Counted from the stretch's first letter, positions 9,565-64,000 are shown. The stretch: 64,000 nt of DNA from Candidatus Omnitrophota bacterium (GCA_043814605.1 JBDRJV010000016.1:16218-80217), one strand, 5' to 3'. Made by a program: numbers and translations. Notes: generated by a model from the sequence alone, not told the origin.

Positions 9565-9586
9565 AAAAAATAGGAAGGGTGATATT

Positions 9587-30609: not shown

Positions 30610-30641
30610 TAAAATTATTTCGTGAGAAAGGGGATCAGATT

Positions 30642-43538: not shown

Positions 43539-43693
43539 AGATACTAAATTAGCCTATAGGATAATTTAAATAAATTTAGTTGTAATGAAAAAAAATGATT
43601 AATTAAATTGCCCGCCAAGTGTTTTCGGAGAAGCATGTTGTGGCGAGGCATAATTATCCCGCTTAAGCGGGAGAATTATGGAGATAATATATT

Positions 43694-43969: not shown

Positions 43970-44020
43970 ATTGTTAAAAGTCACATAAAATCATTCCTAA
44001 AAACCTGCTTTTTGCTTTCC

Positions 44021-44049
44021 TTGACAACCACAACTTAATGTGATATACT
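44021..44049 (+). promoter_or_regulatory. consensus sigma70 promoter TTGACA-17-TATACT driving the giant-gene operon
   Basis: TTGACA at 44021-44026, 17-nt spacer, TATACT at 44044-44049; predicted TSS near 44056, about 360 nt upstream of the first CDS. Confidence 0.6.
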
Positions 44050-44912: not shown

Positions 44913-44931
44913 ATTGACAGTTCGGTTTTTT
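44901..44931 (+). terminator. hairpin plus T-run (partial terminator or attenuator) overlapping the stop codon of the 44418 CDS
   Basis: CCGAACTGT-TAAATTG-ACAGTTCGG followed by TTTTTT. Confidence 0.5.
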
Positions 44932-44944
44932 ATTAACACATTTT

Positions 44945-45313
44945 TTGCAGTCTAATAAAAGGATGGTGGTTCGGATGGAAGAAAGAAGAAGATATAAAAG
45001 AGAAAATAAGGAATTTTCCCTGCAGCTAAATGAGTTAAACAAAACAGACCATATAGCCATAAAGAATTCTTTTTGCCGGGATATTAGTTGTGTGGGTTTA
45101 TCAATATTTTCTTTTGATTTTTATCCGGTTAACCAGAAAGTGCATTTGAAATTATATTCAAGTACTTGGAATGAATTATTAGATACAGTAGGGAAAATTA
45201 TTTGGGTGAGGCAGCTGCCTTATCAAAATAAATATAGAATTGGTATAGAATTCACAAATACAAGCCAGGATGCAATGAAAAAAATTAAAACGATTGTTGA
45301 ATCCGGAAAATAA
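44945..45313 (+). CDS. PilZ domain protein (putative c-di-GMP receptor)
   Basis: RxxxR motif (RRRYKR) near the N-terminus and D-x-S-x-x-G motif (DISCVGLSI) about 30 residues later; 122 aa. Confidence 0.6.
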   Translation: MQSNKRMVVRMEERRRYKRENKEFSLQLNELNKTDHIAIKNSFCRDISCVGLSIFSFDFYPVNQKVHLKLYSSTWNELLDTVGKIIWVRQLPYQNKYRIGIEFTNTSQDAMKKIKTIVESGK

Positions 45314-45339: not shown

Positions 45340-46062
45340 ATGAAAAACAGAAAATTTATTAAAAGTTTGATCAAAAAAACAGGATGTGTTTTATTACTGC
45401 TTGGGGTTATCGCATTTTCCTCTTTAAGTTATGGCCAGATGGATGAGGTAAGCCAGCTTAGCGAAAATAACCACAAAGCCGAATTAGCCAATGAAGATAC
45501 TGGACAGGTAAAAAATATACCTTTTACCAATTATACCGGCGATGACCTGCCTTTAATGGGGGATGCGCGTGTTTCCAGTATTAAGGAAACTGTTACTGGC
45601 TTAAAAGATGCAGGGTATAGTTTAGATGAAATTGTTGGCGTATTAAAAAATGATGATAAAAATGCGCCGGAAATCAGTATCGCTTGTTTAAATGCCGGAT
45701 TTAACGGAACAAAAATTTTTCAGGCATTAAAAAAATCCGGATTTTCAGATCGCAGTACCGAAGCGGCAATTCCGCCGGCCCTGCGTACAAGCAGCCAGAT
45801 GTTCGTAACTTTAAATAGTAATCCAGATTCTGTGGCTGCAGAAATGGCAATGATCGAAGCAAATCCGTTTACATCTAGAGGCGTTAAAGATGCGGCAATA
45901 CAAAAAATTATGCAAGGTGAGCCAGAGATTCAAGACGATAAAACAACAAACACTTCCGGAATTAATCCTTATGAAGTAAAGGTTAATGTGGGAGTGACTT
46001 TTAATGGTTTAGGTGATTGGAATAATTTTCAAAATCAAAGGTTTGAAAACAATAAACAATAA
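45340..46062 (+). CDS. hypothetical secreted protein
   Basis: 240 aa with a signal peptide (VLLLLGVIAFSSLSYGQ); no catalytic motifs. Confidence 0.45.
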   Translation: MKNRKFIKSLIKKTGCVLLLLGVIAFSSLSYGQMDEVSQLSENNHKAELANEDTGQVKNIPFTNYTGDDLPLMGDARVSSIKETVTGLKDAGYSLDEIVGVLKNDDKNAPEISIACLNAGFNGTKIFQALKKSGFSDRSTEAAIPPALRTSSQMFVTLNSNPDSVAAEMAMIEANPFTSRGVKDAAIQKIMQGEPEIQDDKTTNTSGINPYEVKVNVGVTFNGLGDWNNFQNQRFENNKQ

Positions 46063-46076
46063 TTTAGGGGGTAAAT

Positions 46077-49000
46077 ATGAGCAGCCTAACTGGAAAACTG
46101 TGGTTTAAAATAACCGCGTTTATTGTCTTGGAAACGTTTTTGTTTACGATTGCGGATATATCCTGGGCCGCAGATTATCGTGACCAGAAAACGCAAGCGG
46201 AAAGATTAATGGATTTACAGCCGTTAAAAGATACCCGGGAAAACCTGTCCCAGGATGCCTTAGGCGATAAAATAGTGCTAACCCAGCCGGCAGTGCCGTT
46301 TTTAGGCATAGAACATCCGCAAGGCATGCTGACACAGAAGCCCATGTCCTTAACCGAAACAACTATTTACGGGTTAACAATAGCGGGTAATGATTTAACC
46401 ACAATATTTAAGTCCTTGAAAAATTCCGGCTCATCCGTAACAGATGCTGGCTTTAGTGCAGTCCGCCAGGGATTTAACAAAAAGGAAATTTATCATGCAT
46501 TGCTTAAGGCCGGATATGACGAGAAAGAAGTGAAAACCCTTTTAGGCAGTTTATTAAAAGCCGAAGAAGAAAAGAAAAAGCAAGCCGAAGAAAACCAGGA
46601 AAAAAAGACCTCTCCTCCGGAAGAAAAAGAACAAGTCCAGGGACAAACTCCGCTTGTTAAAGAACAAGCAATATTTGAAATTCCCAAAGTTGCCACTTTA
46701 CCGGTTAAAGAAAAAGCTGTGGAAATTATCAACGACTCCCAGAAACAATTTGCATTACACAGGCAAACAGTGGAATTTGTCCGGCTGATGATTAAAGAAG
46801 GTAAACGCGGTAAGGAACTGATTAATATCCTTAAAAAAGCCGGATTAAGTAATGAAAGAATTATTACTACATTAGCCCAGTTAGGGTTTAGCCTGCAAAA
46901 TATTATCAGTATTTTAAAACAAGCAGATTTAAACTGTGAGGATATTGTAAAAGCAGTACAGAGTTCGCAGTTAACCTATTCTAATAAAGATATTTATACT
47001 GCCTTAATTCAATCCGGTTATTCGGATAAAGATATAATCAGTGCGTTTAAAGATGCCGGAATGAGCGCAGAAGATATCTTAAAGTTAACTACAGACTTAG
47101 GCCGCAATATGATTATTATCGCCCAGGCAATGCTTAATGCTGGTTTTAGCATGGCGGATGTAGCCCGAGCATATGTTTTAAAGGCAATGCAATGGTCTTA
47201 TGATCTAAGTGTGAATATCGTTAACTGTGCAGTGGAATCATTCAGTGCATTCTTGAATAATATCGGGCGAAAATTTTCCTCAAAAGAAGACCTAGCTTAT
47301 GAACTTATTCTGGATGATATTTTGGCTACCGGAGAGGTGGATTTACAGGGTAAGAACATCATGACTTCTATGCTGGCGATAAAAAATATAGCCACTAAAT
47401 ACGGGATTGATTTACAAGGATATAAGTTAACTATAGATAGTTTACAAGAACTAAGTGGTATGTCCATCCTGCACCTTGATGCAGACCACTGGGTTAGCTT
47501 AGTCGGTATTGAAGGGGATAAAGCCACGATTATTGATAACGGAACACGTAAAACAATTACTCTATCTGAACTTCAGGTGCGTTGGGACGGAAATATTTTA
47601 GCTCTCAATAAAGATAAGATTAAGGAGCATAAACTTTATGATTTGCAAATGCGCCAGATTCGCGGGGCAAGCTGGCTTTCTGATGCTTGGGAAGATGCGA
47701 CAAATTGGGTAAAAGATGCAGTGGAGGGTGTGGGAGATTTTTTTGTTGATGTATATAACGGGGTTAATGATTTTGTGCAAGGTGTTAACAATTTAATCGT
47801 GAGTTTTTATTATACTGCTTGTGGCAATCAGCAAAAAGCAGATTATTACTGGAATAAAGGAATGCAGCTTATTGATCAAGTTGTCTTGAAGATAATTAAG
47901 GCAATCCCAAATAACGGTATTCAACATGTTCTTGAATCTGTTTGGTCTGGTATAAGGATGTATGTACAAGGAGTGGGTAATGTTATTAAAGGGTCAATAA
48001 TGATGCTCCGGGGTGATTTTAAAGAAGGATTCTATCTTATGACTGCAGGCTTTACGCAGATGGCCGTTTCGGGTTTGGTTGCTTTATACAAGGTTTGCGG
48101 AGAAGATGGAGGCAGATTCATAGGACGATTTATTCAATGGGTAGTACGGATTGTTGCGGCTATCTTAACCTTTATTTTTACCAAAATTCTTGGTTGGACT
48201 GTAGTTGGCATGATTGTTGGAATGATCATTGCATTTATAGCAACAATGATTATTTGTATGGTTGATTATGATTTTGTTCAGTATGTTTCCACTGCTGATG
48301 CGGCGGGGATTAGTAAAGTTATGGGGAAAGTATTGGCTGCGGCTTGTATTTCAGCAGCAGTTGCAGCAGTAGGTTTTTTTGTTGGATATGCGCTTGATGG
48401 CCTCTTTAGCAGTACAGGAAGCGAATTAGCAACCACAACAAACACAGGAACCACAACAACAGCAAGTTCAGTCACAAGCCAAGTAGGAACAGGACTATCT
48501 ATAGGAACAACCAGTATGGTATCAACTACAGCACAGGCTTTTAGTACTATAGCAACTAACTTAGCTACAATAGGAACTAGTTTAGCGACTGCAGCATATA
48601 ATTTAGGAGTTTCTTTATATCTGGCGGTAATTAGTTTTAGTATCACTAATATAATCGGATCTTTACTTATGTTTGTCGATGCATTTATAGAGTTCGTTAT
48701 TGCTGTCAAGGACTCATTCAAAGGATTTTTTTCAGAATTTTCGAAAAATGTTAGTGCTGACATATCGCAAAATTGTGCAAATTCCGGAGTTACTGTCAAT
48801 CAAGAGGTACTAAAGGAAGCACTGGACAGTGGATTAAAAAATATGCTGGTTCAGCAGGCTGTTATGACCGGTGTTGTTTATGGCTGTGAGGCCGCAGGAA
48901 TTGATGATCCTTATCTTAAAGCTGTAATTGTTGGCGTTGCTGGTGCATTAGCGGGTAGTTATGGTGGCCCAGGGGGTTGGGAGGAGACGTTTAAAGAAAT

Positions 49001-52000
49001 GGCTGTTGCTGCGGGCTCAATGGTGGCAGAAGAATCGATCAGGCAAATGGGGTACCACGAAAATTGGGATCCTTTACTTACAAATAGCCTAGCTTCAATA
49101 ACTGGGTTTACAGTCCAGGCAGGTTTTGGAGCAGCTTTAGGCGCGGATTATTCAATACAAGATGATCCTGATACCAAAAAAATAGAAACTGCATATAACA
49201 ATACAAATCCTTTTTTCACAAGGTTGGGACATAATTTAAGAGCAGGATTAGGAAATGTGGTGGGAGATATTGCTTCGGATTATGTAGCTAGAATTTGTCA
49301 GGAAAATGAAGTAGACCCAACAATTACTGCAGTACTTAGTTCATGGGCTGGAACATTTACGACATCTTCTGTAGATTATATGACCGGTCAGACAGATTTG
49401 GGTTATTTAAATACTTTGGGAAAAGCAGCGGAACAAGGTACTTACGATGCTGTTTCAATTGTTACTTTTATGGAAACTAAAAAGTTATTAATGAACGAGC
49501 TTGATTTTACAGAAACCCAGGCTACAGGCATGGCCTATGGCATGACTTTACCCATGAGATTTATGTTTAGCCATAATAAAGTTGCAGAGGAAAATAAAGA
49601 TGGTTATATTGGCGGTGAATTTAAAGATGGGAAAGTATCATATGAAGGAATAACAATTAAGGATGAGTTTATTCGCGAGCAAGTAGGTGAGTTTTTTGAG
49701 AGCTTAGGGTATGGCAGCAAGCTTAGCGGTAATACATATGAACGGCATGATTATAATAGTAATTATAGTAATAAAGTATCATCTTTTGAATATATGTTAT
49801 TTGGCCAAGGCCTTACCCAGGATTTAGAGGGTAATTTTTATAGCAATGACGGCAGCATCAGTAATTACGGTACGCTAAATAAAAATAAGTTAGAGTATTT
49901 AAATTATTGGGCAGAAAAAAATCCCGAAATATTTGGCGAGAAATTTGATAGTAATACTGATGTAGAAAAAACAACGGATACCAATACTGATACTAAAGCT
50001 TCTAATTTAAGTTACGGCGATGCCTTGTTTACTACGGTTTCTGATGCACAGCTCAGTTATTATAATAAAAAAGGCATGACAAATATTAGTCAGGGACTCT
50101 CTGATGCGAGTGCTCACTACAAATATCAAAATAAAATAGACAGGTTAAATAAAATGGAGGGCGTTGACGTAAAGCTGGGAGAAGAATATGGGACTAAGAT
50201 TGTAGTAACTAATAATTCAGGGCAGGCAACAGAAGAATTATCATCAGAATTAAACAAAAATGTGGGAGAAGGAGACAGTGCTTTTTATGATTCTGCAGAC
50301 GCTTTTATCAATAATAATCCTTTGGTAATTACAAAGGCAGAAGGTACGAATTTTAGTACTGAATTAAGCAATGGAATGGAAGTTAAGTTTAATAGTTCTG
50401 ACAATGTATTTGAAGGACAAGGAGTTATAACAACACCAGTAAATTCGACTAACATAAATCAACTTTGCCCCAGTTTGAATGTTAATGCCAATTTACTAAA
50501 TGCTAACCAATATAATAATTATTCTTTAGTTGCGCAAGTAACTGTAGATTTGAAAAGCAAGACAATCATCCAAACAACCGATATGAAATTAACTGCAACT
50601 GCTACATCAACTAAAAACGTGATCCTGCCGGTCAATATCGGTAACCACACAGCTTATATTGGTGTTGAAACAAATGTAAATTTCAGTAATCAGGATTTAG
50701 TTTTAAAAAGTGATTCTCAGCTGAAAAATGATTATCAGCCTACAAATGATAATATTAAGGCAACAAATACCAGCGAAAAAGCAGCGGATGTTATTGTAAA
50801 ATACGACGCCGAAAATAAAGTTACGCTGAGTGTAAACAATATGGGACAAATAGGGATATCGAAAGAGACAATTAAAAATTTTAATGATTCAAAACAGTTA
50901 GTTAGTGATGTGATTGATTTACCGAATGGCTGCGATACAACCAAGACAGAGTTTGAACTTGTCTATAATACAACAGAAGGTTTGCAATTAACCGCAGTTG
51001 AAAATATTGCTGCGGGTAAAAAAATAAATTATGATGGCGAAGATGCATTCATAACCAGCAGCTCGGCACAGCTTATCTATAACGAGTCAGGAACAATAAC
51101 ATCGATTAAGGGGGAAGATACAAGGTCAAATCGATCAGGGAAAGATGTTACAGGGGTAGAAATTAAAACTTCCAAGGGTAATATTCTGCTGGAAAATAAA
51201 AACCAGATTTCTTTTGCCAATGAAAAAAGTGGTTTTCTTTCAGGTTTAAGTTCCTACTTTGGTATCGGCGGCGGAAATGAGTTTGTGATTGAAAACGGCA
51301 ATGTTTTGATGCTTACTAAGTACAACCTTGGCCAAAAAACAGAATATGAAATAATCCGCAATGGCCAAGAAGGCGGAACAAGCCAGGAAACAAGAGAATT
51401 AAACGAGATAATAATTGGCGAAGATAAAGCTTCGGGTAATTTGTTTATAGCCGAAGGGTGTGTTGTGAACATGGTAAAAAATGATGTTGCATTCACAAAT
51501 AATGATGTAATCCATAATCAGGCGGGAAGGGCTATTAATGTTGGCGGCTTGCAAATTAAACAGGGTGAAAATACTGCGATTCATAATAATCAAGCATTTA
51601 AGTGTATAGAAGTGACAAAACCTGTTGCTGAGGCTCGAGGGGATCTTAAATATCTGCTTGTAGTAAATAATTTAAAATCTAAGGAAAGTTATGATTTTCA
51701 AGTAGAAAATAATAATGTAAATTTACCTTTAGGTGATATTGATAGTAATGACATTTATTTAACTCAGAATGGTTCTCTGTCGTTTTTAACAGATAAAGCG
51801 TTTCAGGGTTCAGAAACAAAAAATCTTGATTTAAATGCAAAAACCACTACTTTTAATTTGAATCCTACAGAAATTAAAGGTCAGGTTGAAATAGATTTTA
51901 CACAAATCGGGCTAAAAGGCAAGACAGAAGGCAAAGGGTTACTTATTGGAGATAAATATGTAACCGGAGCAACCCAGCTAAGTGGAACAGGCAGCGGTAC

Positions 52001-58000: not shown

Positions 58001-61000
58001 ATTGTATAACATTAAAGACCAGATGGTTGGTATCGAAGGCCAAACGCTGATAAAAGGAGAAAATGGTAAGATTAGCGGTACCTTATTTACAACAAATGAT
58101 GATTCTCAGAGCCAGTTTATAATTGAAAATAATAATAAGGTTACGCTGAAAGATGGCCAGCTGAATATTGGTTTTGCGCACCTTTATGCTGTAGATAATT
58201 ATAATACTTATCAAAAAGAAACCCTAGATTTAATTTCTAATGCAAGCTTAGGAAACTTAAAATCCGATACCAAAGAAAATCATATCTATTTAACCAGTGA
58301 TGCCGACAAAAATATCATCATAGAAAAAGGCAGTAAATTTACCGTACAAGATAACAACTTTGTAATTACTAATAATGATGTAATTTATACCGATAAAAAT
58401 TTATGGGTTACAATTTTAGTCGGATCAGGCGCAGCACAAGAAAAAATAGATCTCGGCCCTAATTCCGGAGGAATGGTCAAGGACGGGAAATTTTATGAAG
58501 CCGGAGATAGATTTGCGACAAATAACAAAAATATTCAAGGCAAAGTCGCGATTAATGCTACAACAAACAAGATTGAACTTGTTTACGAGGTGGTGGGGGT
58601 AGAAAATTCAGGAGATATCAAAGGAAACGGTAAAATCTTAAAGATGAATGATGATTATGTGATCAGTATCCAAAAAACTGATGAGGGCGATACAGAAAAA
58701 CGTTTATATGAGGTGGTCACTTCTCCTAATGGGCAAAAAAGCTTAAAGCAAGTTGATCAGATTTCTGTCCAGCAAGAATATAGTGTTGATTTTGGGCAAC
58801 GGACTTTAATCGAAAGCACTACCGTCAGTGTAGATGAAAAAGATATTGAGATAGAGACTGATTATAAGCTGATGGGGCATAAGCTAGCAGTAGGAGAAAG
58901 TGTAGATGTTCGCGCAATAAGTTTTCAGCAAGATCAAGATCCAGAATTTATTTATAATGGGCGTAAATATGTACTTACAAAGTTAGAAAATGGAAAGTTT
59001 ACTCCGGAAAGTTATGATGTATATGAAGCAAACAGTGAATTTATTCAGGGGCTGGTAGTTTTAGATAGTAAGGGAAGACAAGGCCAGATCGATCCTGAGA
59101 GGAATAAAAAAGTTACTGTAATGTTTAATCTTCAGGGAGAGGCCGTGGCTTTAATCGGAGATGGTTTTACCAGAGATGAAAGAGGAGAAAAATATTACGG
59201 TGTTGTTCTCACTGCAGAACATGGGGATCTATTAATTAAAAATGGGAAAAATTCGATTAGTATTAAAGATAATACGCTGACACTTATCCAGGCAGATGCG
59301 ATTACGATGACGCTTTGGGATAGCGGCCGGGAAATAACCCAGGTAAAGGATTCAGATCCGGGTTTAGGCAAGAGTGAGGCTCCTAAAGAAAACAAGATTT
59401 CTGTTACTAAAAGTCAAGGGATTGTTTTTGTTAATTTAAAACAAAACATTACGCTTTTTAATAATGATTGGTTTTTAACAGCGGGAGATGTTCTGGTGAA
59501 TAATTCTCCACAAGCTGAGCAAATACATATTTTATCAGCTGATGGGCGGACAATGTACAGTGTGGAACACGGACAAGAAGCAGCTGTAGAAAATGGAGGT
59601 ATTAAGTTAACCAAAGGTATCAATGCAATTGATTTGAATAACGCGAATATTGTTCAATTAGATAAAAACGGACAGCCCACAAAAACGATCACTAATCCCG
59701 GAGAAGATACTAGCTGGGTAAATGGTAATTATTTGGTTGCCACCAAAGGGGAGAATGGAAATTTTGAATTTACATCTGCGACAGGAGAGAAGTTAGGCTG
59801 GAACATGGCTAGTTTATATAATGTTCAAGCAGATAAAAATATTGTGGAAGTATCTTATCTTGGGAAAAAGATTTCATTAGATTCAACACAGTTTACTAAT
59901 GAGAATGACGGCGAGAGTTTTGGCTCTAGTTACTGGGCTAATGAATATGGGGTTAATGATACAGTATTATTAGAGCAAAGTGATTCATTCTCAACTTCTT
60001 TAAATACATTTTGGCAAACAAATAAAGCAGCAATTGGTGAAGCTGCTTTAGTAATCGGTATAGGTTTAGCAGCAGCAGCGGCTATAGTTGTTTTGCCAGC
60101 ATCTGTTTATATTACTGCGGCTACTTATGGTTCGGTTTTAGGTGTAATGGCTTTAACGGTATCTCTCAGCACCGATAGTTACATGGAATTAGGTAATATC
60201 TTAGCTAATGCTGAGGATACAAATAGTACTGAGAATCTATTCTGGGGCCGCGTTCTTTTTGAGACGGCATCAGCTTTTAGAACAGTGGCAGGGAATTTGG
60301 GAGTGGGGGGTCAGGTACACGGGGAAAGCAATATAGAAACGCCGATTATTGGAGGAGTTAATGCCGGCCATGTTATCGCAGCTGCTACAATTATATGCAT
60401 GGTATACACTGCCGGAGGGCTTGGATTTATAAAGGCATTAAAAGGGCCTTTAGTTTCTCTTTCCAATATTAATCTTGGATTAGTAGGAGAACAAATGTTT
60501 ACCTTAGGAAAAAATTTAATAGGGAAAGGTTTGAACGGAAAAGAAACTTTGGTTAAATCTTGGACTGGCTTGTTAAAATCTTTTGGGGCGATAAAGGGTT
60601 TGCATGTGGGTTTGTGGACAGCAGGGCATATGGCTAATATGCTGCCTGATCATAATCCAGCCTCAGAGTTATATCAATTAGTGCTTTCTCCATTTGCAAT
60701 GGGTGCAGAGTTTACACCAGAGGGATTATGGACAACTGTAAAAGGAGGAGAAAATTGGGATGATATAATCATGACTAACCTACACTTAGCGGGGTTTGCC
60801 GGGCTGATGTATTTTAGTGGGCCGATTCTAGAGTTATTGGCAAGTTCTAGAATTGGTAATTTTAGCGGTCAGTTTTTAGAGGTTTCATTTGGCGAAGGTG
60901 CTGCGGCAAGACTTTCAAGCAGAATGATAAACGGGTTAATTGAAGAAGGCGTCAAAGAGCAGGCATTAGGGGTAATTTTACGTCCTATTTTTGGCAATCA

Positions 61001-64000
61001 GCTGACAGAGTATCTTGTAGAATTCTGTTTTCCAAATTCTGGGGCTTTGATGAACGGTAATGCCTATACCCAGACTGAGTCTGTAGCTAAGCACCAAATG
61101 GTTTCTCAGGATGTGGTGCTGGGAAAAGCCGGCATAGAAACTGTGGATGATTTAAATGCTTATTTATCTAGTCGTAGTCAGGATGGACTAACCGCTACTA
61201 GTGGCGAATATAAGTCTCCATTACAACAGACAACAAATGAAGAACAAACAAATCTTGAATCTGCTTTTCAGGAATTAAATCAATATATTAATGAAAGAAA
61301 AGAAAGTGGTATAGGGTCAATGTCGTTAAAAGAATTTTTTGCTAAGCATAATTTGACAGCTGACCAGATCGATATTGTCTTGAGTGAATTATCTGGAGGA
61401 GAAGGGATCTCTTTGGGAAGTATTAGTGAGTATAGGGATACTGAAATAGAGACTTTGTCTGCTTCTGTTGGGGTAAGATACAATATTCCATTTGCAGTTA
61501 CTAAAAATACACTTACAGAGATTGCCAAAGGCACTGGCCAGAGTGTTGAAAATATTATTAAAAAATTGAATTTAGAAAATAATCAAAATGTAACTGGTCA
61601 AACTAAGCTTTCTGAGCTGGCGACACTAACCGGCCAGGATATTGAGGAAGTTACAGAAACAATCGGTGTATCTATTGCCTATGCAAGTATTACTGATTCC
61701 ACAGAGCTTAGCAGTATTGCTCAAGAGTTAGGTAAAAAAGAAGAGGAAGTAGTTAAAGAACTAGATCAACAACTAAAAACACAAGATATGCAACATATAT
61801 CAACAAGTAATATCTCAAACTCAGCTACTTTACAAAGCTTAGCGCAGTTATATGGGGTCAGTTCGGCAGAGATTACGGATACTCTTGGCCTAAAATATAA
61901 TCCGACTGTATTAGTAGATAGAATGTCTATAGCTCAAATAGCGCAAAAATTAGGCTGGGATTTAAATAATTTCGAAACAGAATTTGAATTAGGAGAGATT
62001 ACTATTGACCAAATAGCCCAAGTGACCGAACAAGAAGTTCAGGTGCTTATTCAACCACTAAACAAAGATAATAATATAACCGGTCAAACAAAAATCAGCG
62101 AGATTACAGGTAAAAGTATAATTGATACTTTAGATTTCTTAGGAGTAAATCTAAATACCTTAGCGCAAATAAAGGGATTTAGCAGTACGGAAGAGTTTGT
62201 CTCGCAAGAGTTAAATGCTGATTACAGCAAATTACGCACGGTTGAGGTTAATATTGATCAGCAGGATGGCGCGATTAGCCTGAATAATTTTAATAATGTA
62301 AACTTCAAAATAGACAGGACTGCAGAAAGCGATCAAGGCCTTACTTTAATCACGCCGAATTATTCCTCAAGATGGCTGAAGCTTTTTCATTCTCTTGATT
62401 CTCTTGTGGGAGGTAATTTTACAAAGAATTATTTATTCAAGGTCACTATTAATAATATTGATTCACAGGAAAATCAGCAAGCATATTATTTTAACAGCGC
62501 AAATAATCTAAAAATTAAAAAACTTGCAAATGTCAACGCTAATGATAGAAACAGCCAAGAAAGTCCGGCTTATGTACTGGCTGCGTATAAAGGCAATGCT
62601 AATGTGCGCACAATCCAGGTTTCTCATCAGCCAAAACCTGAAGTGTTAAGTGAGGTAGAAAATCTGGCTGCGGATGATATTTTTGAGCAATTAGCAGGAG
62701 CTTTAAATTTAGATAATGTTTCGGGCACTAATATATCAAGATTATTGGATAAAAATGGGATTGTACCGGATTTTTATACACCCGGTGATATTATTTCCAG
62801 TAATTCTGCAATAGGTTTTAGTTTTGTGATAAATACTATGAGTGATAATTACACAAAACTAAATGAAAATCAAAAACAACAACTAAAAGAGTTTGTCGAT
62901 AAACTAAATGTTGTCATTTCCTCTTTTGTCGCGGTTAAAACAGTGCAAGACATTGATATTTTGGTAAAGGAAATTAATGCTAACATTAAAAATAGTCAAA
63001 TTAGTACTGCGGATTTAACAATAATCTTATCAAAATCAGGACTGGTTACGGTAGAAGGAGATAAGCTGGATGCGTTAGTCAATAAAATATTAGAGCCTCT
63101 CAATAAATCTTTAAGTGATCATAATGGAAAACTTGACCGAGAGTCTTTACATCAAGTGCTTAGAAATGCCAATGCTCTGGGTGAAGACGGAGTAGAATTT
63201 TTAGGTTTTAGAGAAGATAAAGCAGAAGCTTTCATGAGTTTTATTAATGACCCGACCTTAGGCCATGAAATTAAAACTGGTGCGGGAAAGACCGAATATC
63301 TGATCCATTTAAATGCCCTGGCAGGTTTAATTTGCGGGCGAGAAAGAAGCGTAGTAGTTCTTTCTGATTCAGGAAAGTTAAATGAGGCCTATAACACAAA
63401 TGACCGAAGCAAAGAGCTTTATAATAGTCTGTTAGGTGAGGATTCTGTGGTAGTGATTGATAGTACTACAGAGCGAAACCAAAAAACTAAAGAAACTGTT
63501 GAGAAGATTAATAATCCTAAGACCAGGGTAATTTTTACAGAAAGTTCTGTGCTGGGATTTTTAACTGATTCTAGCCGAAATGGCAAACCCGAGCAAAAAG
63601 AATTGTTTAAATTATTAACTGAAAATATCCAGCTGGTACAGGATGAAATCCATACCATGCGTGGTCAAAATTATATTCGCAGCCATGGCAATGGCAATGA
63701 TAAGCCATTAACCCAATCACAAATAAAAGCAACCCAAACCCTGCGTGATTTTATAATAGCAAATAAAGACTCTCTTGGCGGAATTATAAATGAAAAGGAA
63801 TACATTGATTTAAGTGCATTGGTTTTAACTACTGACTCCGCAGGAGCGCAAGCTGCGCCTGTTTTTAATGACAAGTTTTTTGAAAGCTTGGCAGCTTATT
63901 TGACTAAAATTGAATTTCTGGGTGAGGGTAAAACAATAAAAACAGATATGTTAAATGGCTCTGATTATTTAAGTTCCCCAGAGTTAAAAGAGATCCGTTG
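46077..64000 (+). CDS. giant multidomain membrane/surface protein, 3'-partial (over 5,970 codons within the window; continues past the window end)
   Basis: Frame 0 is open from the ATG at 46077 (RBS GGGGGT upstream) to position 64000. Spot translations at 48420, 55620, 60000 and 63960 are stop-free and protein-like. No other plus-strand ORF of 60 aa or more exists across 18 kb of ~35% GC DNA. Contains a hydrophobic N-terminal anchor, helical repeats, a C39-like peptidase, two TM clusters, a huge beta-rich repetitive middle, and a C-terminal SecA-like Walker A/DExH region. Confidence 0.85.
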   Translation, partial: MSSLTGKLWFKITAFIVLETFLFTIADISWAADYRDQKTQAERLMDLQPLKDTRENLSQDALGDKIVLTQPAVPFLGIEHPQGMLTQKPMSLTETTIYGLTIAGNDLTTIFKSLKNSGSSVTDAGFSAVRQGFNKKEIYHALLKAGYDEKEVKTLLGSLLKAEEEKKKQAEENQEKKTSPPEEKEQVQGQTPLVKEQAIFEIPKVATLPVKEKAVEIINDSQKQFALHRQTVEFVRLMIKEGKRGKELINILKKAGLSNERIITTLAQLGFSLQNIISILKQADLNCEDIVKAVQSSQLTYSNKDIYTALIQSGYSDKDIISAFKDAGMSAEDILKLTTDLGRNMIIIAQAMLNAGFSMADVARAYVLKAMQWSYDLSVNIVNCAVESFSAFLNNIGRKFSSKEDLAYELILDDILATGEVDLQGKNIMTSMLAIKNIATKYGIDLQGYKLTIDSLQELSGMSILHLDADHWVSLVGIEGDKATIIDNGTRKTITLSELQVRWDGNILALNKDKIKEHKLYDLQMRQIRGASWLSDAWEDATNWVKDAVEGVGDFFVDVYNGVNDFVQGVNNLIVSFYYTACGNQQKADYYWNKGMQLIDQVVLKIIKAIPNNGIQHVLESVWSGIRMYVQGVGNVIKGSIMMLRGDFKEGFYLMTAGFTQMAVSGLVALYKVCGEDGGRFIGRFIQWVVRIVAAILTFIFTKILGWTVVGMIVGMIIAFIATMIICMVDYDFVQYVSTADAAGISKVMGKVLAAACISAAVAAVGFFVGYALDGLFSSTGSELATTTNTGTTTTASSVTSQVGTGLSIGTTSMVSTTAQAFSTIATNLATIGTSLATAAYNLGVSLYLAVISFSITNIIGSLLMFVDAFIEFVIAVKDSFKGFFSEFSKNVSADISQNCANSGVTVNQEVLKEALDSGLKNMLVQQAVMTGVVYGCEAAGIDDPYLKAVIVGVAGALAGSYGGPGGWEETFKEMAVAAGSMVAEESIRQMGYHENWDPLLTNSLASITGFTVQAGFGAALGADYSIQDDPDTKKIETAYNNTNPFFTRLGHNLRAGLGNVVGDIASDYVARICQENEVDPTITAVLSSWAGTFTTSSVDYMTGQTDLGYLNTLGKAAEQGTYDAVSIVTFMETKKLLMNELDFTETQATGMAYGMTLPMRFMFSHNKVAEENKDGYIGGEFKDGKVSYEGITIKDEFIREQVGEFFESLGYGSKLSGNTYERHDYNSNYSNKVSSFEYMLFGQGLTQDLEGNFYSNDGSISNYGTLNKNKLEYLNYWAEKNPEIFGEKFDSNTDVEKTTDTNTDTKASNLSYGDALFTTVSDAQLSYYNKKGMTNISQGLSDASAHYKYQNKIDRLNKMEGVDVKLGEEYGTKIVVTNNSGQATEELSSELNKNVGEGDSAFYDSADAFINNNPLVITKAEGTNFSTELSNGMEVKFNSSDNVFEGQGVITTPVNSTNINQLCPSLNVNANLLNANQYNNYSLVAQVTVDLKSKTIIQTTDMKLTATATSTKNVILPVNIGNHTAYIGVETNVNFSNQDLVLKSDSQLKNDYQPTNDNIKATNTSEKAADVIVKYDAENKVTLSVNNMGQIGISKETIKNFNDSKQLVSDVIDLPNGCDTTKTEFELVYNTTEGLQLTAVENIAAGKKINYDGEDAFITSSSAQLIYNESGTITSIKGEDTRSNRSGKDVTGVEIKTSKGNILLENKNQISFANEKSGFLSGLSSYFGIGGGNEFVIENGNVLMLTKYNLGQKTEYEIIRNGQEGGTSQETRELNEIIIGEDKASGNLFIAEGCVVNMVKNDVAFTNNDVIHNQAGRAINVGGLQIKQGENTAIHNNQAFKCIEVTKPVAEARGDLKYLLVVNNLKSKESYDFQVENNNVNLPLGDIDSNDIYLTQNGSLSFLTDKAFQGSETKNLDLNAKTTTFNLNPTEIKGQVEIDFTQIGLKGKTEGKGLLIGDKYVTGATQLSGTGSGTIDETNTIIINVDKQNNESYYKGGEVVLSENGLVYKPGDKLEITGLDKGNTYDPGQGQYTGAYVSTGNVKIINDGTYNVNQNYVTSENQNSQIIFTLTNANDQKIDCLMSLNQPIGEAKAGQQQQYTFNFAKEHEGLSLNSASGRKYTITLDESKYIPLSQSVACTGQIETVEINGNSRLTINQQGNEVTADKIILTGSKSTIDAGAQIGKQTEDKVEIIAGDLHIDASDKRFVGTDTVATSKIDPSLQDKKDQETPKTITFSKDNKQATIHYTGNCEYYLTGDVSFNKEGLYLDNGTIFKVAGSENITGFNNAVTVCDTKVIEGKFLINNNTLVALDSSCLTVDDRAQSVNGSENLFTVSYKVELTEKEGISTVKSIEKNYMFNRENINSQIIFDQDLGIIGKVVENKKGEISLSINTAGGKEVLTNKYVDVSVKETTHGTGKIVTLTDSKNSIIATAGKIQTSDGKNLTMWSTQNATTYLLEGKSLAQGQQISIGKFDYTAGKDLAPMRIETMSFTTKNSTAFNFQGNKLNLSGNVNLHINAFEQQLGISGTDKRGKLTGIEFTKANNEQFLLVNGAQAQIVKIDENKYELIVTSGTAYAITDNTIGKKTDFKTDKQLGKDGGKTTGLNEIVIIDKPNGDIAIEKGSQYTVARNNETGQTEVVFKENDKIINNSKQKITINGFTVAEGKTAAIKFDHVYIQGNTYSFQGKDYTLTNFNDFDLIWTDTRNIQGTISEANLHADKNAVNFIFKTDKATYEVKSGKEVGLKGNAYYHINDIDVWATGIEDKFIKDENGNTGWKFEKLVNGSTYKTKVNGVEVVFIVKDNKLMASNGREIGPQNLGKNKNYKDSEGITHDDVDIYVTQALANGQFVLGTDKQGANAWGQVQAGVSEGVSDLTIQGNTHASITSEQVTRKDGTQQTVNIYSTAADGNFKIVFTADKDLNNTVIKDNLKGSHLDVLGEAVINGKTVLDGAAIDYVEKNGNIVPEFSQGSRILEHDFGSGQQIISVYQGKDIKGNDLGWKWHADSSLVDKEWNNNIYIDGKANPVTCKLSATETGFEVLIKNGQGVNLGRSENFVDSQGIKHKDVDIWVTQKLPNGEYVFMVKDKGKNDWQQEQLDLKGGSQESIHGSTYAKVTDQEINGKTIRNYSEKSNGQFQLIFTADNQLKNMGIKDNLDGSSLEVVNAKIGDKFIVKGGVNFIRDKQGNVQANFDNGTVFLNADGTQGVVTEGEIPAPKAPEKSYLDNLQERFGPEVKGASLKSDSWQQINSEKTGLFGEYKYDSKTDTYTFKGTYIVSESIEIWQAELNFTSDFQMKSASGRVFANVENAKINIAGDNFVIKTDQAVSGMIEIGKYTNQGTIILDPYSDLQLYNQVKNNQVFIFGNEQGKNAEFFINKEKNLVLWNGVIDESNGSFSYSSTDQTQTKTKTQEQKPQQQQKQIQTGVITDIKISGNEKNGYNYSGIVEVRQGEKQILNCEGARLIVEKSGFQFGNIDYDYNSLLIGDKSGNLVAQDGSSGTKHLSFEGSDKKVDVNFTMANGGMNITNISGDTHIDSQVKTDCGEISYEYDLVVVKNQLISINHTTSWIENNQEPVIINEKNAKTVTFEDQGRDYSFEKKGDIYVPYAEVKTTNSINSLVLGKDAESSITIQLTPTKELTCVYDLQGNYTTKAGQDTLEGQKGTVFNYVYNNETKEVFVPDGTIFTADVENSGVVITGKLNILKEGHFNLNIGKDQVHIMPSLGGTDKTTTDDRANKIKVNVDVQNMLYAEEGWISLYQGNFLPGENDCLVNNSASSITLLTPGQDSKPVVVKTGQEAIIKNNQAYIIGSQVTAEKNYIDKNNRIWVEGTYDISAEGKFVVVDGYFMQQDYQAKDGTMFRLKDDQFLTGYSDNTGQICYDQGQDVVASNVLTDQQNNQLSLFTNLKTDQDGMLTEQNYYKLDNQLLETGQKFIFDEKPYVMQEHNGEVMPLFKSNKNFTNDNPLIYYKNGNKIELVGETTLLYNIKDQMVGIEGQTLIKGENGKISGTLFTTNDDSQSQFIIENNNKVTLKDGQLNIGFAHLYAVDNYNTYQKETLDLISNASLGNLKSDTKENHIYLTSDADKNIIIEKGSKFTVQDNNFVITNNDVIYTDKNLWVTILVGSGAAQEKIDLGPNSGGMVKDGKFYEAGDRFATNNKNIQGKVAINATTNKIELVYEVVGVENSGDIKGNGKILKMNDDYVISIQKTDEGDTEKRLYEVVTSPNGQKSLKQVDQISVQQEYSVDFGQRTLIESTTVSVDEKDIEIETDYKLMGHKLAVGESVDVRAISFQQDQDPEFIYNGRKYVLTKLENGKFTPESYDVYEANSEFIQGLVVLDSKGRQGQIDPERNKKVTVMFNLQGEAVALIGDGFTRDERGEKYYGVVLTAEHGDLLIKNGKNSISIKDNTLTLIQADAITMTLWDSGREITQVKDSDPGLGKSEAPKENKISVTKSQGIVFVNLKQNITLFNNDWFLTAGDVLVNNSPQAEQIHILSADGRTMYSVEHGQEAAVENGGIKLTKGINAIDLNNANIVQLDKNGQPTKTITNPGEDTSWVNGNYLVATKGENGNFEFTSATGEKLGWNMASLYNVQADKNIVEVSYLGKKISLDSTQFTNENDGESFGSSYWANEYGVNDTVLLEQSDSFSTSLNTFWQTNKAAIGEAALVIGIGLAAAAAIVVLPASVYITAATYGSVLGVMALTVSLSTDSYMELGNILANAEDTNSTENLFWGRVLFETASAFRTVAGNLGVGGQVHGESNIETPIIGGVNAGHVIAAATIICMVYTAGGLGFIKALKGPLVSLSNINLGLVGEQMFTLGKNLIGKGLNGKETLVKSWTGLLKSFGAIKGLHVGLWTAGHMANMLPDHNPASELYQLVLSPFAMGAEFTPEGLWTTVKGGENWDDIIMTNLHLAGFAGLMYFSGPILELLASSRIGNFSGQFLEVSFGEGAAARLSSRMINGLIEEGVKEQALGVILRPIFGNQLTEYLVEFCFPNSGALMNGNAYTQTESVAKHQMVSQDVVLGKAGIETVDDLNAYLSSRSQDGLTATSGEYKSPLQQTTNEEQTNLESAFQELNQYINERKESGIGSMSLKEFFAKHNLTADQIDIVLSELSGGEGISLGSISEYRDTEIETLSASVGVRYNIPFAVTKNTLTEIAKGTGQSVENIIKKLNLENNQNVTGQTKLSELATLTGQDIEEVTETIGVSIAYASITDSTELSSIAQELGKKEEEVVKELDQQLKTQDMQHISTSNISNSATLQSLAQLYGVSSAEITDTLGLKYNPTVLVDRMSIAQIAQKLGWDLNNFETEFELGEITIDQIAQVTEQEVQVLIQPLNKDNNITGQTKISEITGKSIIDTLDFLGVNLNTLAQIKGFSSTEEFVSQELNADYSKLRTVEVNIDQQDGAISLNNFNNVNFKIDRTAESDQGLTLITPNYSSRWLKLFHSLDSLVGGNFTKNYLFKVTINNIDSQENQQAYYFNSANNLKIKKLANVNANDRNSQESPAYVLAAYKGNANVRTIQVSHQPKPEVLSEVENLAADDIFEQLAGALNLDNVSGTNISRLLDKNGIVPDFYTPGDIISSNSAIGFSFVINTMSDNYTKLNENQKQQLKEFVDKLNVVISSFVAVKTVQDIDILVKEINANIKNSQISTADLTIILSKSGLVTVEGDKLDALVNKILEPLNKSLSDHNGKLDRESLHQVLRNANALGEDGVEFLGFREDKAEAFMSFINDPTLGHEIKTGAGKTEYLIHLNALAGLICGRERSVVVLSDSGKLNEAYNTNDRSKELYNSLLGEDSVVVIDSTTERNQKTKETVEKINNPKTRVIFTESSVLGFLTDSSRNGKPEQKELFKLLTENIQLVQDEIHTMRGQNYIRSHGNGNDKPLTQSQIKATQTLRDFIIANKDSLGGIINEKEYIDLSALVLTTDSAGAQAAPVFNDKFFESLAAYLTKIEFLGEGKTIKTDMLNGSDYLSSPELKEIR

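Follow-up and report, generated by a model that had tools for sequence, protein, structure and literature searches.

We suggest that a giant gene of Candidatus Omnitrophota, occupying positions 46077-63998 (+) of a 64-kb window (the whole stretch of DNA analysed here) and running off its end, encodes a membrane-anchored surface protein of a class already described for this phylum, and we consider this reading, taken together with the mechanism proposed below, to be reasonably probable. The identity as a surface protein is, on its own, very likely; the mechanism on its own is tentative. The visible part of the product is made up of a signal-peptide-like leader, helix-turn repeats, a C39 peptidase domain, a cluster of transmembrane (TM) helices, a ~3,770-aa all-beta region, a second TM cluster, a ~1,000-aa helical region and an SF2 ATPase with a remote relationship to SecA. 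The core reading of the initial annotation, which had described a giant mosaic membrane protein with an anchor, a C39 domain, two TM clusters, a beta-rich middle and an ATPase at the window edge, holds. The locus is notable mainly for a predicted c-di-GMP riboswitch and a PilZ gene located just upstream of the giant gene.

Domain order and predicted topology of the giant protein

The signal-peptide-like N-terminus (aa 1-31, ...ISWA/AD; 46077..46169, +) contains the hydrophobic anchor noted earlier, visible as a hydropathy peak at aa 8-30, and is kept in the relative L021 as well as in ORF164, a small gene upstream. It is followed by helix-turn repeats of the form xAG[FYLM]Sxx[DE]I (aa ~100-370; 46374..47186, +), with six strict motif matches at aa 145-365 compared to 0.96 expected from shuffles of the whole protein. 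Helical repeats of the form xAGxSxxDIxxL had been reported here with a 28-aa unit; the repeats are real, but their unit is ~14-16 aa.

The Peptidase C39-like domain (aa ~375-515; 47199..47621, +), also recognised in the initial annotation, matches Pfam PF03412 (Peptidase_C39) at aa 430-513 with 40.3 bits (cut-off 22; E 3.3e-10), the match covering profile positions 45-131 of 133. A candidate triad of Cys384, His471 and Asp487 is kept in full in L021. The His and Asp residues have aligned counterparts in the PCAT protease 6mpz, while Cys384 was assigned by visual inspection, as the motif NCAVESFSAFLNNIG matches the CGxxxLxxxLxxxG spacing and the Pfam alignment starts only at profile position 45. 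The domain thus resembles the C39 peptidases of PCAT and RTX exporters in its above-threshold score, its aligned His and Asp motifs and the expected spacing of its Cys, whereas the Cys-bearing N-terminal third of the Pfam model is left unaligned by HMMER and neither a double-glycine leader-type cleavage motif nor a GG-leader substrate was identified. There is also no fusion to an ABC transporter, a domain absent by Pfam from both the giant protein and its neighbourhood. C39 of ABC transporters is cytoplasmic, whereas the domain described here comes after a signal-peptide-like segment, which counts against the topology proposed below.

A conserved N-terminal C39 with a plausible Cys/His/Asp triad would also suit a polyprotein, from which this or another protease would release three products: a peptidase with its helical repeats, destined for export, a fibre at the surface and an ATPase complex in the cytoplasm. 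The size of the gene would then reflect gene fusion. Cleavage of giant proteins into several polypeptides has been proposed by West-Roberts 2023 (10.1101/2023.11.21.568195). Rates differ strongly between modules: aa 1-530 share 59% identity with L021, with no similarity beyond that point, whereas the cytoplasmic module shows 30-35% identity across relatives and the middle is conserved in patches only. In addition, ORF164, ORF240 and, in L021, a gene of 470 aa encode stand-alone products that resemble pieces of the N-terminal module. However, C39 in its known families cuts short N-terminal leaders and not internal linkers, and this specificity, together with the lack of identified double-glycine motifs, makes such processing unlikely in our opinion. 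It would be compatible with the surface-protein reading rather than exclusive of it.

TM cluster 1 (~4-6 helices, aa ~650-881; 48024..48719, +) shows Kyte-Doolittle 19-residue peaks of 1.6-2.8 at aa 682-881 and includes a Thr/Ser-rich linker at 48414-48599, in agreement with the cluster and linker described previously. TM cluster 2 (~3-4 helices, aa ~4651-4925; 60027..60851, +) coincides with the one annotated at 60030-60900, and a TM cluster is kept at this position in the relatives P0001, P0002, P0003 and L016. Together the two clusters comprise ~8-10 hydropathy peaks, the number of helices per cluster being ambiguous by hydropathy.

Between the two clusters lies a Pfam-dark middle region of ~3,770 aa (48720..60026, +), presumed extracytoplasmic, rich in Asn, Thr, Gly and Lys and with a hydropathy of -0.3 to -0.7. 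We conclude that it is all-beta and repeat-containing, as the huge beta-type middle of the initial annotation had implied. The ~240-aa tandem repeats claimed there exist, but as one pair only, with a period of ~230 aa (aa 2781-2980 and 3031-3202; 54417..55682, +; 40% identity over 160 aa, E 9e-29). In addition, iterated HMM searches revealed five dispersed beta super-repeats of ~290 aa each, at aa ~1570-1845 (50784..51611, +), ~2412-2676 (53310..54104, +), ~3505-3805 (56589..57491, +), ~3875-4145 (57699..58511, +) and ~4205-4515 (58689..59621, +), the last of which was used for modelling. A poly-Q/TK patch, previously placed at 56270-56330, was found at 56265-56330. The ~3,770-aa middle had no match in Pfam, NCBIfam, PHROG or PADLOC, an adhesin, lectin, dockerin, glycoside-hydrolase or other functional domain was undetectable in it, and its best model, that of a beta super-repeat, had no PDB match; adhesion is therefore attributed to this region by analogy.

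Beyond TM cluster 2, a helical-repeat region and a further domain, both predicted to be cytoplasmic, precede the ATPase (61074..63146, +). This module has internal repeats (aa 5139-5200 versus 5303-5359), carries N[IV]TGQTK[IL]SE twice, agreeing with the recurring NITGQTKISE motifs seen before, and is 30-35% identical to Omnitrophota relatives along its whole extent. The N-terminal part of a divergent, putatively SecA-related SF2 ATPase follows (63147..63998, +), cut by the window end, with Walker A TGAGKT at 63276-63293 and motif II DEIH at 63642-63653; these motifs are invariant in our alignment A1. An AlphaFold2 model of the relative P0001 shows two RecA-like domains, a ~230-aa insertion between DEIH and MTGT, of which the window holds just the first ~110 aa, and a 44-residue helix directly past the second RecA domain.

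Two RecA-like domains with Walker A and a DEAD-type motif II are shared with the SecA family. In hhalign comparisons, a profile of seven SecA and SecA2 sequences matched the ATPase with E 2e-4 (2.1e-4) and a probability of 46%, and E. coli SecA alone with E 2e-3 and 13%, its PPXD end aligning to the insertion. SecA2 sequences were included in profile A5. Two local matches to SecA are collinear, one at YGTNNEFGF and the other extending from RRwSdGLHQAvEAKEGv to the MTGT stretch. Unlike in SecA proper, there was no gathering-level Pfam score for the giant protein: SecA_DEAD gave no match even at E <=10 in it or in eight relatives. A PDB sequence search with the ATPase returned no match, and the scaffold and wing of SecA likewise had no counterpart by sequence, the corresponding part of the giant ORF lying off-window. 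We conclude that the motor belongs to the SF2 ATPases of the DEAD/DExH type and that only remote homology connects it to SecA. The ATPase motifs reported at the window edge are thus real, but the 'clear' likeness to SecA is not.

This leaves room for a membrane-tethered nucleic-acid helicase or translocase of the DExH type, coupling surface contact to DNA/RNA uptake or defence. Motif II (DEIH) is DExH-like, the weak Pfam matches in relatives are to DEAD and ResIII and not to SecA_DEAD, the top PDB matches of the ATPase model in Foldseek are RIG-I, MDA5 and LGP2 (E ~1e-4), and P0006, a distant member of the family, adjoins an AbiEii gene. At the same time, the large insertion between motifs II and III is placed as in SecA, whereas in RIG-I-like helicases the insertion is located within the second RecA domain; motif III is MTGT (compare GMTGTA in SecA), the SecA-specific segments align collinearly, and neither PADLOC nor PHROG gave a match. 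We therefore regard a nucleic-acid role as quite improbable and favour an export-type motor.

In the relatives the ~2,000 aa past the ATPase are helical or TPR-like (the P0001 tail carries TPR repeats), with neither a toxin domain nor a TM segment, and further large ORFs are found downstream of the gene. Giants that deliver toxins typically start with an export signal at the N-terminus and carry a long stalk rich in beta structure as well as a variable region; these traits, the large size and the downstream ORFs could fit a contact-dependent, polymorphic-toxin-like protein with its cargo in the unseen C-terminal part. We give this very little credence, as the relatives' C-terminal parts lack such cargo, this part would lie on the cytoplasmic side together with the ATPase, and RHS, filamentous-haemagglutinin, VENN or immunity-gene signatures were not seen in the window or in the related locus L002.

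In close relatives of the giant protein a TM cluster precedes the ATPase, and none of them has a TM segment past it. Since the enzyme depends on ATP, this arrangement would place the C-terminal module in the cytoplasm. The beta-rich region, flanked by the two TM clusters, would in that case form a huge loop on the far side of the cytoplasmic membrane, anchored there at either end.

The reading frame, its relatives and the host

The stop-free frame containing the giant ORF spans 46068-63998 (+), or 5,977 codons, and is open at the window end, while the second-longest frame of the window has 841 codons. The ORF itself starts at ATG 46077, with a GGGGG Shine-Dalgarno sequence 6 nt before it, and 5,974 codons are seen, the 3' end being beyond the window. 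At a per-codon stop probability of 0.079, the absence of a stop by chance has P ~1e-213, and the frame was preferred in 17/17 one-kb tiles by codon-usage log-likelihood (model trained on 14 housekeeping genes from the same window), as expected from the earlier description of a single uninterrupted ~18-kb ORF. No DNA-level tandem or long direct repeats able to collapse the assembly were found in the ORF, a result that bears on the concern over collapsed repeats raised by the initial annotation. The same start is used in L021, an independent assembly, with 59% identity over aa 1-530. Collinearity extends to three independent relatives, with P0002 covering aa 968-5974 and P0003 aa 4214-5974, and one alignment runs for 1,920 aa in an ungapped frame. 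We conclude that the ORF is genuine and codes for protein.

The exact 5,974-aa translation matches no protein on record, so the window end is not the annotated end of the gene. The giant product is also absent from protein collections that contain its neighbours' products, which could mean that the source record treats the gene as a pseudogene. That absence, with all neighbouring products of the same contig present, is what a misassembled frame or a decaying, untranslated gene would lead one to expect, but zero stops in 5,974 codons, codon bias in each 1-kb tile, the lack of collapsible repeats, collinearity with three relatives, the start and first 530 aa kept in L021 and the speed at which a decaying gene at 36% GC would gather stops leave such an artefact with hardly any probability.

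The window holds roughly the 5' three quarters of the gene. Since homologues end 1,740-2,200 aa past the P-loop, the full protein is probably ~7,500-8,000 aa long by comparison with these relatives, ending in a helical/TPR tail; <=41 kb of contig remains beyond the window.

The host is Candidatus Omnitrophota, a lineage of the uncultivated ultra-small or episymbiotic kind from which, according to the initial annotation, most reported genes of this sort come. Six products of the window (ClpC, CysS, ROK, ORF164, PilZ and ORF240) are identical to NCBI proteins labelled 'MAG: ... [Candidatus Omnitrophota bacterium]', all from one 105,240-bp contig with ABIG64 tags, and among the best ClpC matches listed (74-89% identity) the named organisms are almost all Omnitrophota/Omnitrophica. 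Relatives of the giant protein are few: nine matches among 1.84 billion (1.84e9) representative proteins, the closest in four Omnitrophota MAGs, and nine loci in 185,579 species genomes, four of them in Omnitrophota, two in Auribacterota, two unclassified and one under an isolate name pointing to UBP3. The rarity claimed for such genes is correct across bacteria; within Omnitrophota, however, they are common and already catalogued (PMC10066038; 10.1101/2023.11.21.568195; 10.64898/2026.06.07.730766). A SurA-like protein encoded in the window hints at a diderm cell.

The upstream cluster and its predicted c-di-GMP riboswitch

A sigma-70-like promoter (44021..44049, +; TTGACA, 17-nt spacer, TATACT, extended-10 TG) matches the consensus at 11/12 positions, and both hexamers are kept in L021. 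It is followed by a ~370-nt leader (folding z = -6.4) containing an aptamer of the c-di-GMP-I class (Rfam clan CL00126; 44142..44324, +), which matches RF01051 at 41.9 bits (gathering 35) over model positions 1-87, with E 3.7e-6 in the local scan and 8.4e-5 for the whole window. At the orthologous position, L021 and L023 match RF03167 with 60.5 bits for a gathering threshold of 59. Based on these profile matches, the structured leader is classified as a c-di-GMP-I-class riboswitch conserved in a relative. In the relative the best-scoring model is the variant RF03167 (c-di-GMP-I-GGC), and c-di-GMP or a related dinucleotide is the putative ligand. Similarly to GEMM-I riboswitches, which precede adhesin, pilus and motility genes, the aptamer is full-length, scores above gathering, and lies past a near-consensus promoter and before genes for exported proteins and PilZ, but differs from them in the very long insertions in both hairpins. 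An insertion of ~48 nt, in or next to P2 and flanked by TCAGGGG, is absent from the relative's aptamer and may impair the window's copy. The stretch from the aptamer to ORF164 contains neither an obvious terminator nor an obvious expression platform of the anti-SD kind.

ORF164 (44418..44912, +; MFH1459535.1) encodes a small protein with a signal-peptide-like N-terminus that is paralogous to aa 8-94 of the giant protein (28% identity over 87 aa, E 3e-10); an identical copy is present on an ENA contig and a homologue in L021. The PilZ-domain protein (112 aa; 44975..45313, +; MFH1459536.1) matches Pfam PF07238 at 38.6 bits against 22.5, and its translation includes RRYKR (RxxxR) and DISCVG (DxSxxG). 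ORF240, a signal-peptide protein (45340..46062, +; MFH1459537.1, ABIG64_04100) with a homologue in L021, shares with the N-terminal region of the giant protein the AG[FY]S..[DE]I helix-turn repeats, with two strict motifs. Neither ORF164 nor ORF240 had a Pfam match.

A terminator scan detected a hairpin with a 13-bp stem and a U-run (44899..44937, +; dG -20.1 kcal/mol, z -6.7), overlapping the ORF164 stop codon and standing between ORF164 and PilZ; at 91% identity in L021 it is the best-conserved non-coding stretch. According to the initial annotation, the giant gene and its neighbours share one transcript, which begins at a consensus promoter and carries a structured leader. Both elements exist and are conserved, the leader being the predicted riboswitch, but because of this terminator-like hairpin read-through to the giant gene is unproven.

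Proposed mechanism and comparison with known systems

In the mechanism we tentatively propose, at least the first gene of the cluster would respond to c-di-GMP (or a related dinucleotide) via the riboswitch, with the PilZ protein as a possible second, post-translational c-di-GMP input. By analogy, the beta-rich loop may serve for adhesion to, or contact with, host or prey cells, and the C39 domain may process either the giant protein itself or the co-encoded small leader-bearing ORF164 and ORF240 products. The SecA-like motor, membrane-tethered by TM cluster 2, could power export or remodelling of this or neighbouring giant proteins, probably acting in trans because it is translated last. A C-terminally encoded motor cannot aid export of the earlier-made part of its own chain.

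Omnitrophota giants with a signal peptide, an N-terminal C39, many TM helices, a divergent SecA DEAD domain without scaffold and wing, pilZ neighbours and a role in attachment or predation were described by West-Roberts 2023 (10.1101/2023.11.21.568195), and Nielsen & Lui 2026 (10.64898/2026.06.07.730766) reported C39-only and SecA_DEAD-only architecture clusters, with 94% membrane targeting. In Velamenicoccus archaeovorus, whose giant protein has 39,678 aa, giant-protein peptides were 3-fold higher in attached than in unattached cells (Seymour 2023, PMC10066038). The protein described here very likely belongs to this class of huge membrane proteins, to which a role in attachment to host or prey is attributed. 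It shares with them the phylum, a signal peptide followed by an N-terminal C39, multiple TM helices, long beta-rich stretches with little annotation that presumably lie outside the cell, a divergent SecA-type DEAD motor beside a TM anchor, a pilZ gene nearby, and diverged protein repeats with no tandem repeats at the DNA level.

Differences are also apparent. The window protein is probably smaller (>=5,974 aa seen, ~7,500-8,000 predicted) than those catalogued at >=10,000 aa by Nielsen & Lui or the >30,000 aa on which West-Roberts focused, and its motor is too divergent for Pfam SecA_DEAD. Unlike the 'Archaeovorin' type, it has no glycosyl transferase, methyltransferase, glycoside hydrolase or NUDIX domains, and unlike the 'Dockerin' type, no dockerin, TSP3 or discoidin repeats: Pfam and NCBIfam gave no such match in the 5,974 aa seen, and none was found in P0001-P0003. 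PilZ is encoded upstream here and downstream there, and, in contrast to most published giant-gene loci, genes for type II secretion or pili are absent from the 46 kb that precede the ORF. A c-di-GMP-class riboswitch, as predicted at the head of this cluster, is unmentioned in West-Roberts 2023, Seymour 2023 and Nielsen & Lui 2026.

Among better-known systems, the closest model for a second motor is SecA2/SecY2, in which a divergent SecA paralogue is likewise tied genetically to a very large surface adhesin. This accessory Sec pathway exports giant serine-rich-repeat adhesins in Gram-positive bacteria. Here, however, the motor is part of the giant chain itself, on its C-terminal side, and is much more distantly homologous to SecA than SecA2 proteins are (34-39% identical to E. 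coli SecA), and SecY2, Asp partners and glycosyltransferases were not seen. LapA of Pseudomonas is a giant adhesin under c-di-GMP control via LapD. A type I system exports it, an outer-membrane pore retains it, and its dedicated cysteine protease is the periplasmic LapG. There is no homology between the two systems, with LapG there and C39 here as the protease, and LapD there and the riboswitch and PilZ here as the putative sensors. Nevertheless, in each of them a giant surface protein rich in repeats is paired with a cysteine protease and with c-di-GMP sensing, and LapA offers a plausible analogy for the switching of surface display.

The giant reading frame and its host

The plus-strand frame that opens at 46068 is free of stops up to the window end at 63998 (5,977 codons, the next longest frame in the window having 841), and starting from the ATG at 46077, located 6 nt downstream of GGGGG, it yields a product of 5,974 codons with the 3' end still to come. 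With the base composition of the window a stop is expected every ~13 codons, and the probability of none occurring in this frame is ~1e-213. A codon-usage model whose training set was 14 housekeeping genes from the window gives the giant frame a higher log-likelihood than both shifted frames in 17 out of 17 consecutive 1-kb tiles, with margins like those of clpC. Two antisense ORFs inside the gene, 48278–48799 (−, 173 aa) and 54525–54872 (−, 115 aa), are most likely spurious, because the codon statistics prefer the plus frame throughout. Collapsed repeats, a concern raised with the initial annotation, are unlikely since neither Tandem Repeats Finder nor a direct-repeat search revealed repeats of consequence in the DNA of the gene.

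The frame has counterparts in other assemblies. A relative with ~70–75% DNA identity (locus L021, Logan ERR1950819) carries a giant homologue with the same start and 59% identity over aa 1–530, the database protein P0003 aligns with aa 4214–5974 in one alignment of 1,920 columns, and a second database protein, P0002, is collinear with the product over aa 968–5974. As far as sequence comparison goes, these independent assemblies support the reading frame; together with the absence of stops and the codon bias, such collinear relatives confirm the ~18-kb uninterrupted coding ORF proposed initially. The exact 5,974-aa translation is not among recorded proteins; the product had no self-match in protein collections, either by HMMER against 1.84 billion representatives or by word-indexed search with its C-terminal 1,338 aa and 285 aa, and the window's own contig was not among the matches when GTDB genomes and JGI metagenomes were scanned with the C-terminal 399 aa or with a nine-sequence alignment of the motor region (A1). 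ORF240 and ClpC likewise had no exact match in a gene-position index.

Ordinary chromosomal genes fill the first 46 kb of the window (PEPCK, purine genes, enolase, H+-PPase, tilS, lysS, mcsB-clpC, radA, a PIN-TRAM protein gene, ispD, ispF, cysE, cysS and a ROK protein gene). At 29557–33086 the genes for a McsB-type arginine kinase and ClpC come before radA and the PIN-TRAM protein gene, a gene order familiar from Firmicutes that is seen here in an Omnitrophota genome. The window ClpC is 100% identical to MFH1459523.1 of a Candidatus Omnitrophota bacterium MAG at NCBI, encoded on a contig of 105,240 bp, and among the further matches listed (74–89% identity) those with a named organism are almost all from Omnitrophota/Omnitrophica. 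CysS, ROK, ORF164, PilZ and ORF240 are exact copies of MFH1459532, -533, -535, -536 and -537, encoded on the same Omnitrophota contig (locus tags ABIG64_04090, ABIG64_04100). These exact matches overrule the Firmicutes origin hinted at by the mcsB-clpC-radA-ispDF-cysES order. A phage or defence-island origin can be dismissed, as PHROG and PADLOC gave no matches and the context is one of housekeeping genes. A PocR-GAF sensory protein is encoded at 15240–16217, near tRNA genes at 15035–15108 and 16680–16753, and a third tRNA gene lies at 159–232 (−).

Modules of the protein and its C-terminal motor

The product begins with a signal-peptide-like hydrophobic segment (aa 1–31, ending ISWA/AD), which is conserved in L021, and its N-terminus is paralogous to that of the small upstream protein ORF164 (28% identity over 87 aa, E 3e-10). 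At aa ~100–370 there are helix-turn repeats (xAG[FYLM]Sxx[DE]I, period ~14–16 aa; six strict matches in the giant protein vs 0.96 expected), and ORF240 carries the same motif twice. They are followed at aa ~375–515 by a C39 peptidase domain (Pfam 40.3 bits, gathering threshold 22), in which the His and Asp motifs align to PCAT protease 6mpz and the spacing of Cys384 fits the family by eye; the candidate Cys, His and Asp are all three kept in L021. TM cluster 1 (aa ~650–881, including a Thr/Ser-rich linker) and TM cluster 2 (aa ~4651–4925) enclose a beta-rich middle of ~3,770 residues (aa 882–4650) rich in Asn, Thr, Gly and Lys. Helical repeats and then an unassigned domain cover aa 5000–5690, with N[IV]TGQTK[IL]SE occurring twice, and a P-loop ATPase runs from aa 5691 to the window end (TGAGKT at 63276–63293, DEIH at 63642–63653).

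Pfam, NCBIfam, PHROGs and PADLOC gave no match to the middle region (aa 882–4650), and whole-protein self-BLAST returned the self-match alone. Tiled BLAST detected one tandem pair (aa 2816–2975 vs 3046–3198, 40% identity, period 230), and iterated HMM searches uncovered a dispersed super-repeat of ~290 aa, the five copies of which have their starts near aa 1570, 2412, 3505, 3875 and 4205. This super-repeat is also found immediately upstream of the TM cluster in the relatives P0001, P0003 and L016. The beta-rich repetitive character noted initially is upheld by these repeats. A fold search with a beta-repeat model gave no credible match, and adhesion is at present a putative function of the region.

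Among 1.84 billion representatives, HMMER matched nine proteins to the last 1,200 aa. Three of them (P0001, P0002 and P0003) share the entire module from TM cluster 2 onward at ~30–37% identity, and the remaining six, among them the 408-aa fragment P0004, match within the ATPase region alone. When 185,579 species genomes were scanned with the motor alignment, nine loci emerged (four from Candidatus Omnitrophota MAGs, two from Auribacterota, one from a MAG with an isolate name pointing to UBP3 and two unclassified), and JGI metagenomes provided four more. Walker A and DEIHT are invariant across the nine sequences of A1. Downstream of DEIH the relatives show an insertion of ~230 aa, then MTGT, and beyond it a second RecA-like domain (…GDVFGLDLK…QGFGRxRGY…) that is followed by a long helix.

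We suggest that the motor is most likely an SF2 ATPase derived from SecA, at a similarity below family-level thresholds. Aligned by hhalign, A1 matches E. coli SecA over the end of its preprotein cross-linking domain and on up to GMTGTA (E 2e-3, probability 13%) and a profile of seven SecA/SecA2 sequences from Walker A through YGTNNEFGF (E 2.1e-4, probability 46%), and the two matches are collinear. At the same time, Pfam SecA_DEAD matched neither the motor nor any A1 member even at E ≤10, neither the sequence of the ATPase region, searched against the PDB, nor the A1 profile gave a SecA or helicase match, and NCBIfam, PADLOC and PHROGs gave nothing useful on the giant protein. Of the SecA-like ATPase motifs called clear in the initial annotation, Walker A and DEIH are present, but the relationship to SecA is a remote one. 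A nucleic-acid helicase is a live alternative: Foldseek on the motor model favours RIG-I-like helicases (E ~1e-4, TM-scores 0.2–0.3), and Pfam at E ≤10 gives weak DEAD and ResIII matches in two relatives. Against it stand the insertion between motifs II and III, the MTGT form of motif III and the alignment of SecA-specific segments, and because of these features derivation from SecA is favoured. Beyond Omnitrophota, a SecA-like motor is embedded in a further large protein: a 13.8-kb Legionella geestiana plasmid (NZ_CP041715.1) is largely taken up by a CDS (453–9296) for a hypothetical protein of 2,947 aa, a region of which is 25% identical to E. coli SecA residues 98–602.

Promoter, riboswitch and small genes upstream

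A near-consensus promoter lies at 44021–44049 (TTGACA, 17 nt, TATACT; 11 of 12 matches, with an extended −10 TG), and the ~370-nt leader behind it folds far better than shuffled sequences (z −6.4). The leader contains a complete c-di-GMP-I aptamer (44142–44324; Rfam 41.9 bits, gathering threshold 35), the sole non-tRNA Rfam family above gathering in the whole window; weak matches to Yfr11 and SL1 fell below gathering and were rejected. L021 has conserved both promoter and aptamer in the corresponding position. The orthologous aptamer in this relative (L021 8101–8224, L023 2126–2249) scores best as the variant c-di-GMP-I-GGC (RF03167, 60.5 bits) rather than as canonical c-di-GMP-I, and its ligand may thus be something other than c-di-GMP itself. 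Compared with L021, the window aptamer has a 48-nt insertion (~44178–44225) with two small hairpins, flanked by a TCAGGGG direct repeat. The segment looks like a small insertion or duplication event, which may alter or disable the aptamer. Rfam detected no riboswitch at six distant homologue loci, one alone of which covers the gene start.

The aptamer is followed by ORF164 (44418–44912, the leader paralogue), the PilZ gene (44975–45313), ORF240 (45340–46062, the repeat paralogue) and the giant gene, with gaps of 14–62 nt between the genes. In the PilZ protein both RxxxR and DxSxxG are intact. A hairpin with a 13-bp stem and a U-run (44899–44937; dG −20.1 kcal/mol, z −6.7) overlaps the ORF164 stop codon and is the best-conserved non-coding stretch, with 91% identity in L021; no good promoter-like site was found between the hairpin and the giant gene. 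The riboswitch certainly precedes ORF164. Transcription may read through from there into PilZ, ORF240 and the giant gene. The promoter and structured leader described initially are real, the leader being a riboswitch, whereas the proposed co-transcription is qualified by the hairpin between ORF164 and PilZ.

In the relative, a further gene of 470 aa (L021 9947–11359) separates the ORF240 homologue from the giant gene. It encodes a signal peptide and the AGY..[DE] helix-turn repeats, and the set of small repeat proteins in this cluster seems to grow and shrink. A small ORF for a hydrophobic, two-TM-like peptide (~43690–43970, +) is situated between the ROK gene and the promoter and is kept in L021 and L023 as a 114-aa gene.

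Proposed role and the wider family

Giant genes occupy a large share of the small Omnitrophota genomes and are believed to lie behind the attachment of these bacteria to other microbes or their predation on them; we know of no Omnitrophota giant gene with a demonstrated mechanism. Giant ORFs are a documented hallmark of the phylum (PMC10066038). Full-length giants have been described with signal peptides, N-terminal C39 domains, many TM helices and pilZ neighbours, and with divergent SecA DEAD domains lacking scaffold and wing (10.1101/2023.11.21.568195), and 916 proteins of at least 10 kAA, 94% of them membrane-targeted, have been catalogued (10.64898/2026.06.07.730766). The window gene fits this picture as a smaller new example, a further case of a known class and not a new class, and its protein is probably below the catalogue size cut-offs. 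It differs in that its pilZ gene lies upstream, its motor is too diverged for Pfam, T2SS/pilus genes are absent nearby, at least upstream, the enzyme and dockerin domains that mark the named subtypes are missing from the part seen, and the cluster is headed by a c-di-GMP-class riboswitch. The three surveys cited here make no mention of a riboswitch, and our literature search found no paper tying one of this class to Omnitrophota.

We are confident of the identity of the giant protein, and the initial interpretation was largely right in that a mosaic membrane protein is borne out. The mechanism proposed here, put forward as a hypothesis for the whole class by West-Roberts et al. (10.1101/2023.11.21.568195), is tentative, with the odds somewhat against it. 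What the data show directly is the domain order, the organism, the conserved TM anchor-helical region-motor cassette and the upstream dinucleotide-sensing elements. The motor and everything past TM cluster 2 would reside in the cytoplasm, and the 3,770-aa beta-rich part, held at both ends by the TM clusters, would form a contact or attachment structure outside. The C39 domain would mature the giant protein or the small leader-sharing proteins. As the motor is translated after the exported part, it would act in trans and power export or remodelling of further copies or of neighbouring giant proteins, and c-di-GMP-class signalling would set the timing of cluster use. Seymour et al. (PMC10066038) cite an enrichment of V. 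archaeovorus giant-protein peptides in attached cells, with which this mechanism agrees. It seems improbable that the double-anchored beta loop and the cis-fused, membrane-tethered SecA-like motor make up a new kind of ATP-powered surface machine, whose deployment or retraction would be controlled by a dinucleotide of the c-di-GMP class and whose maturation would involve its own C39 peptidase and the small leader-sharing proteins. If true, this would be a self-contained attachment/export organelle of essentially one gene, apart from all numbered secretion systems.

The window gene introduces no new principle and leaves the picture of these proteins unchanged; it is a tractable, cleanly modular representative, comparatively small, without DNA-level repeats and with clean bounds between leader, C39, TM cluster, beta repeats, TM cluster and motor. 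Its family is tiny and clearly delimited: among 1.84 billion representatives it has nine relatives, which share a conserved cytoplasmic cassette of TM anchor, helical region and SecA-like motor. The riboswitch and PilZ offer a concrete, testable regulatory handle on the timing of giant-protein production.

In the Omnitrophota relatives L002, L010 and L016 the ORF stops 1,740–2,200 aa past the P-loop, from which a total of ~7,500–8,000 aa is predicted for the full giant protein. The tail of P0001 has TPR repeats, and no TM segment was found in the relatives' tails past the motor. A very large ORF (1,350 aa to >2,600 aa) lies directly 3' of the giant gene at the majority of the motor-family loci (same strand in L002, L011, L012, L013, L015, L017 and L018), which suggests that giant genes occur in pairs or arrays. 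P0006 is a complete family member of 7,458 aa with an AbiEii gene downstream. On its contig (ENA ERZ24794666), a 3,331-codon open frame (3–9995, +) is situated upstream on the same strand, at a place where the deposited gene calls are small opposite-strand genes alone; it may be a second giant gene overlooked by the gene caller.
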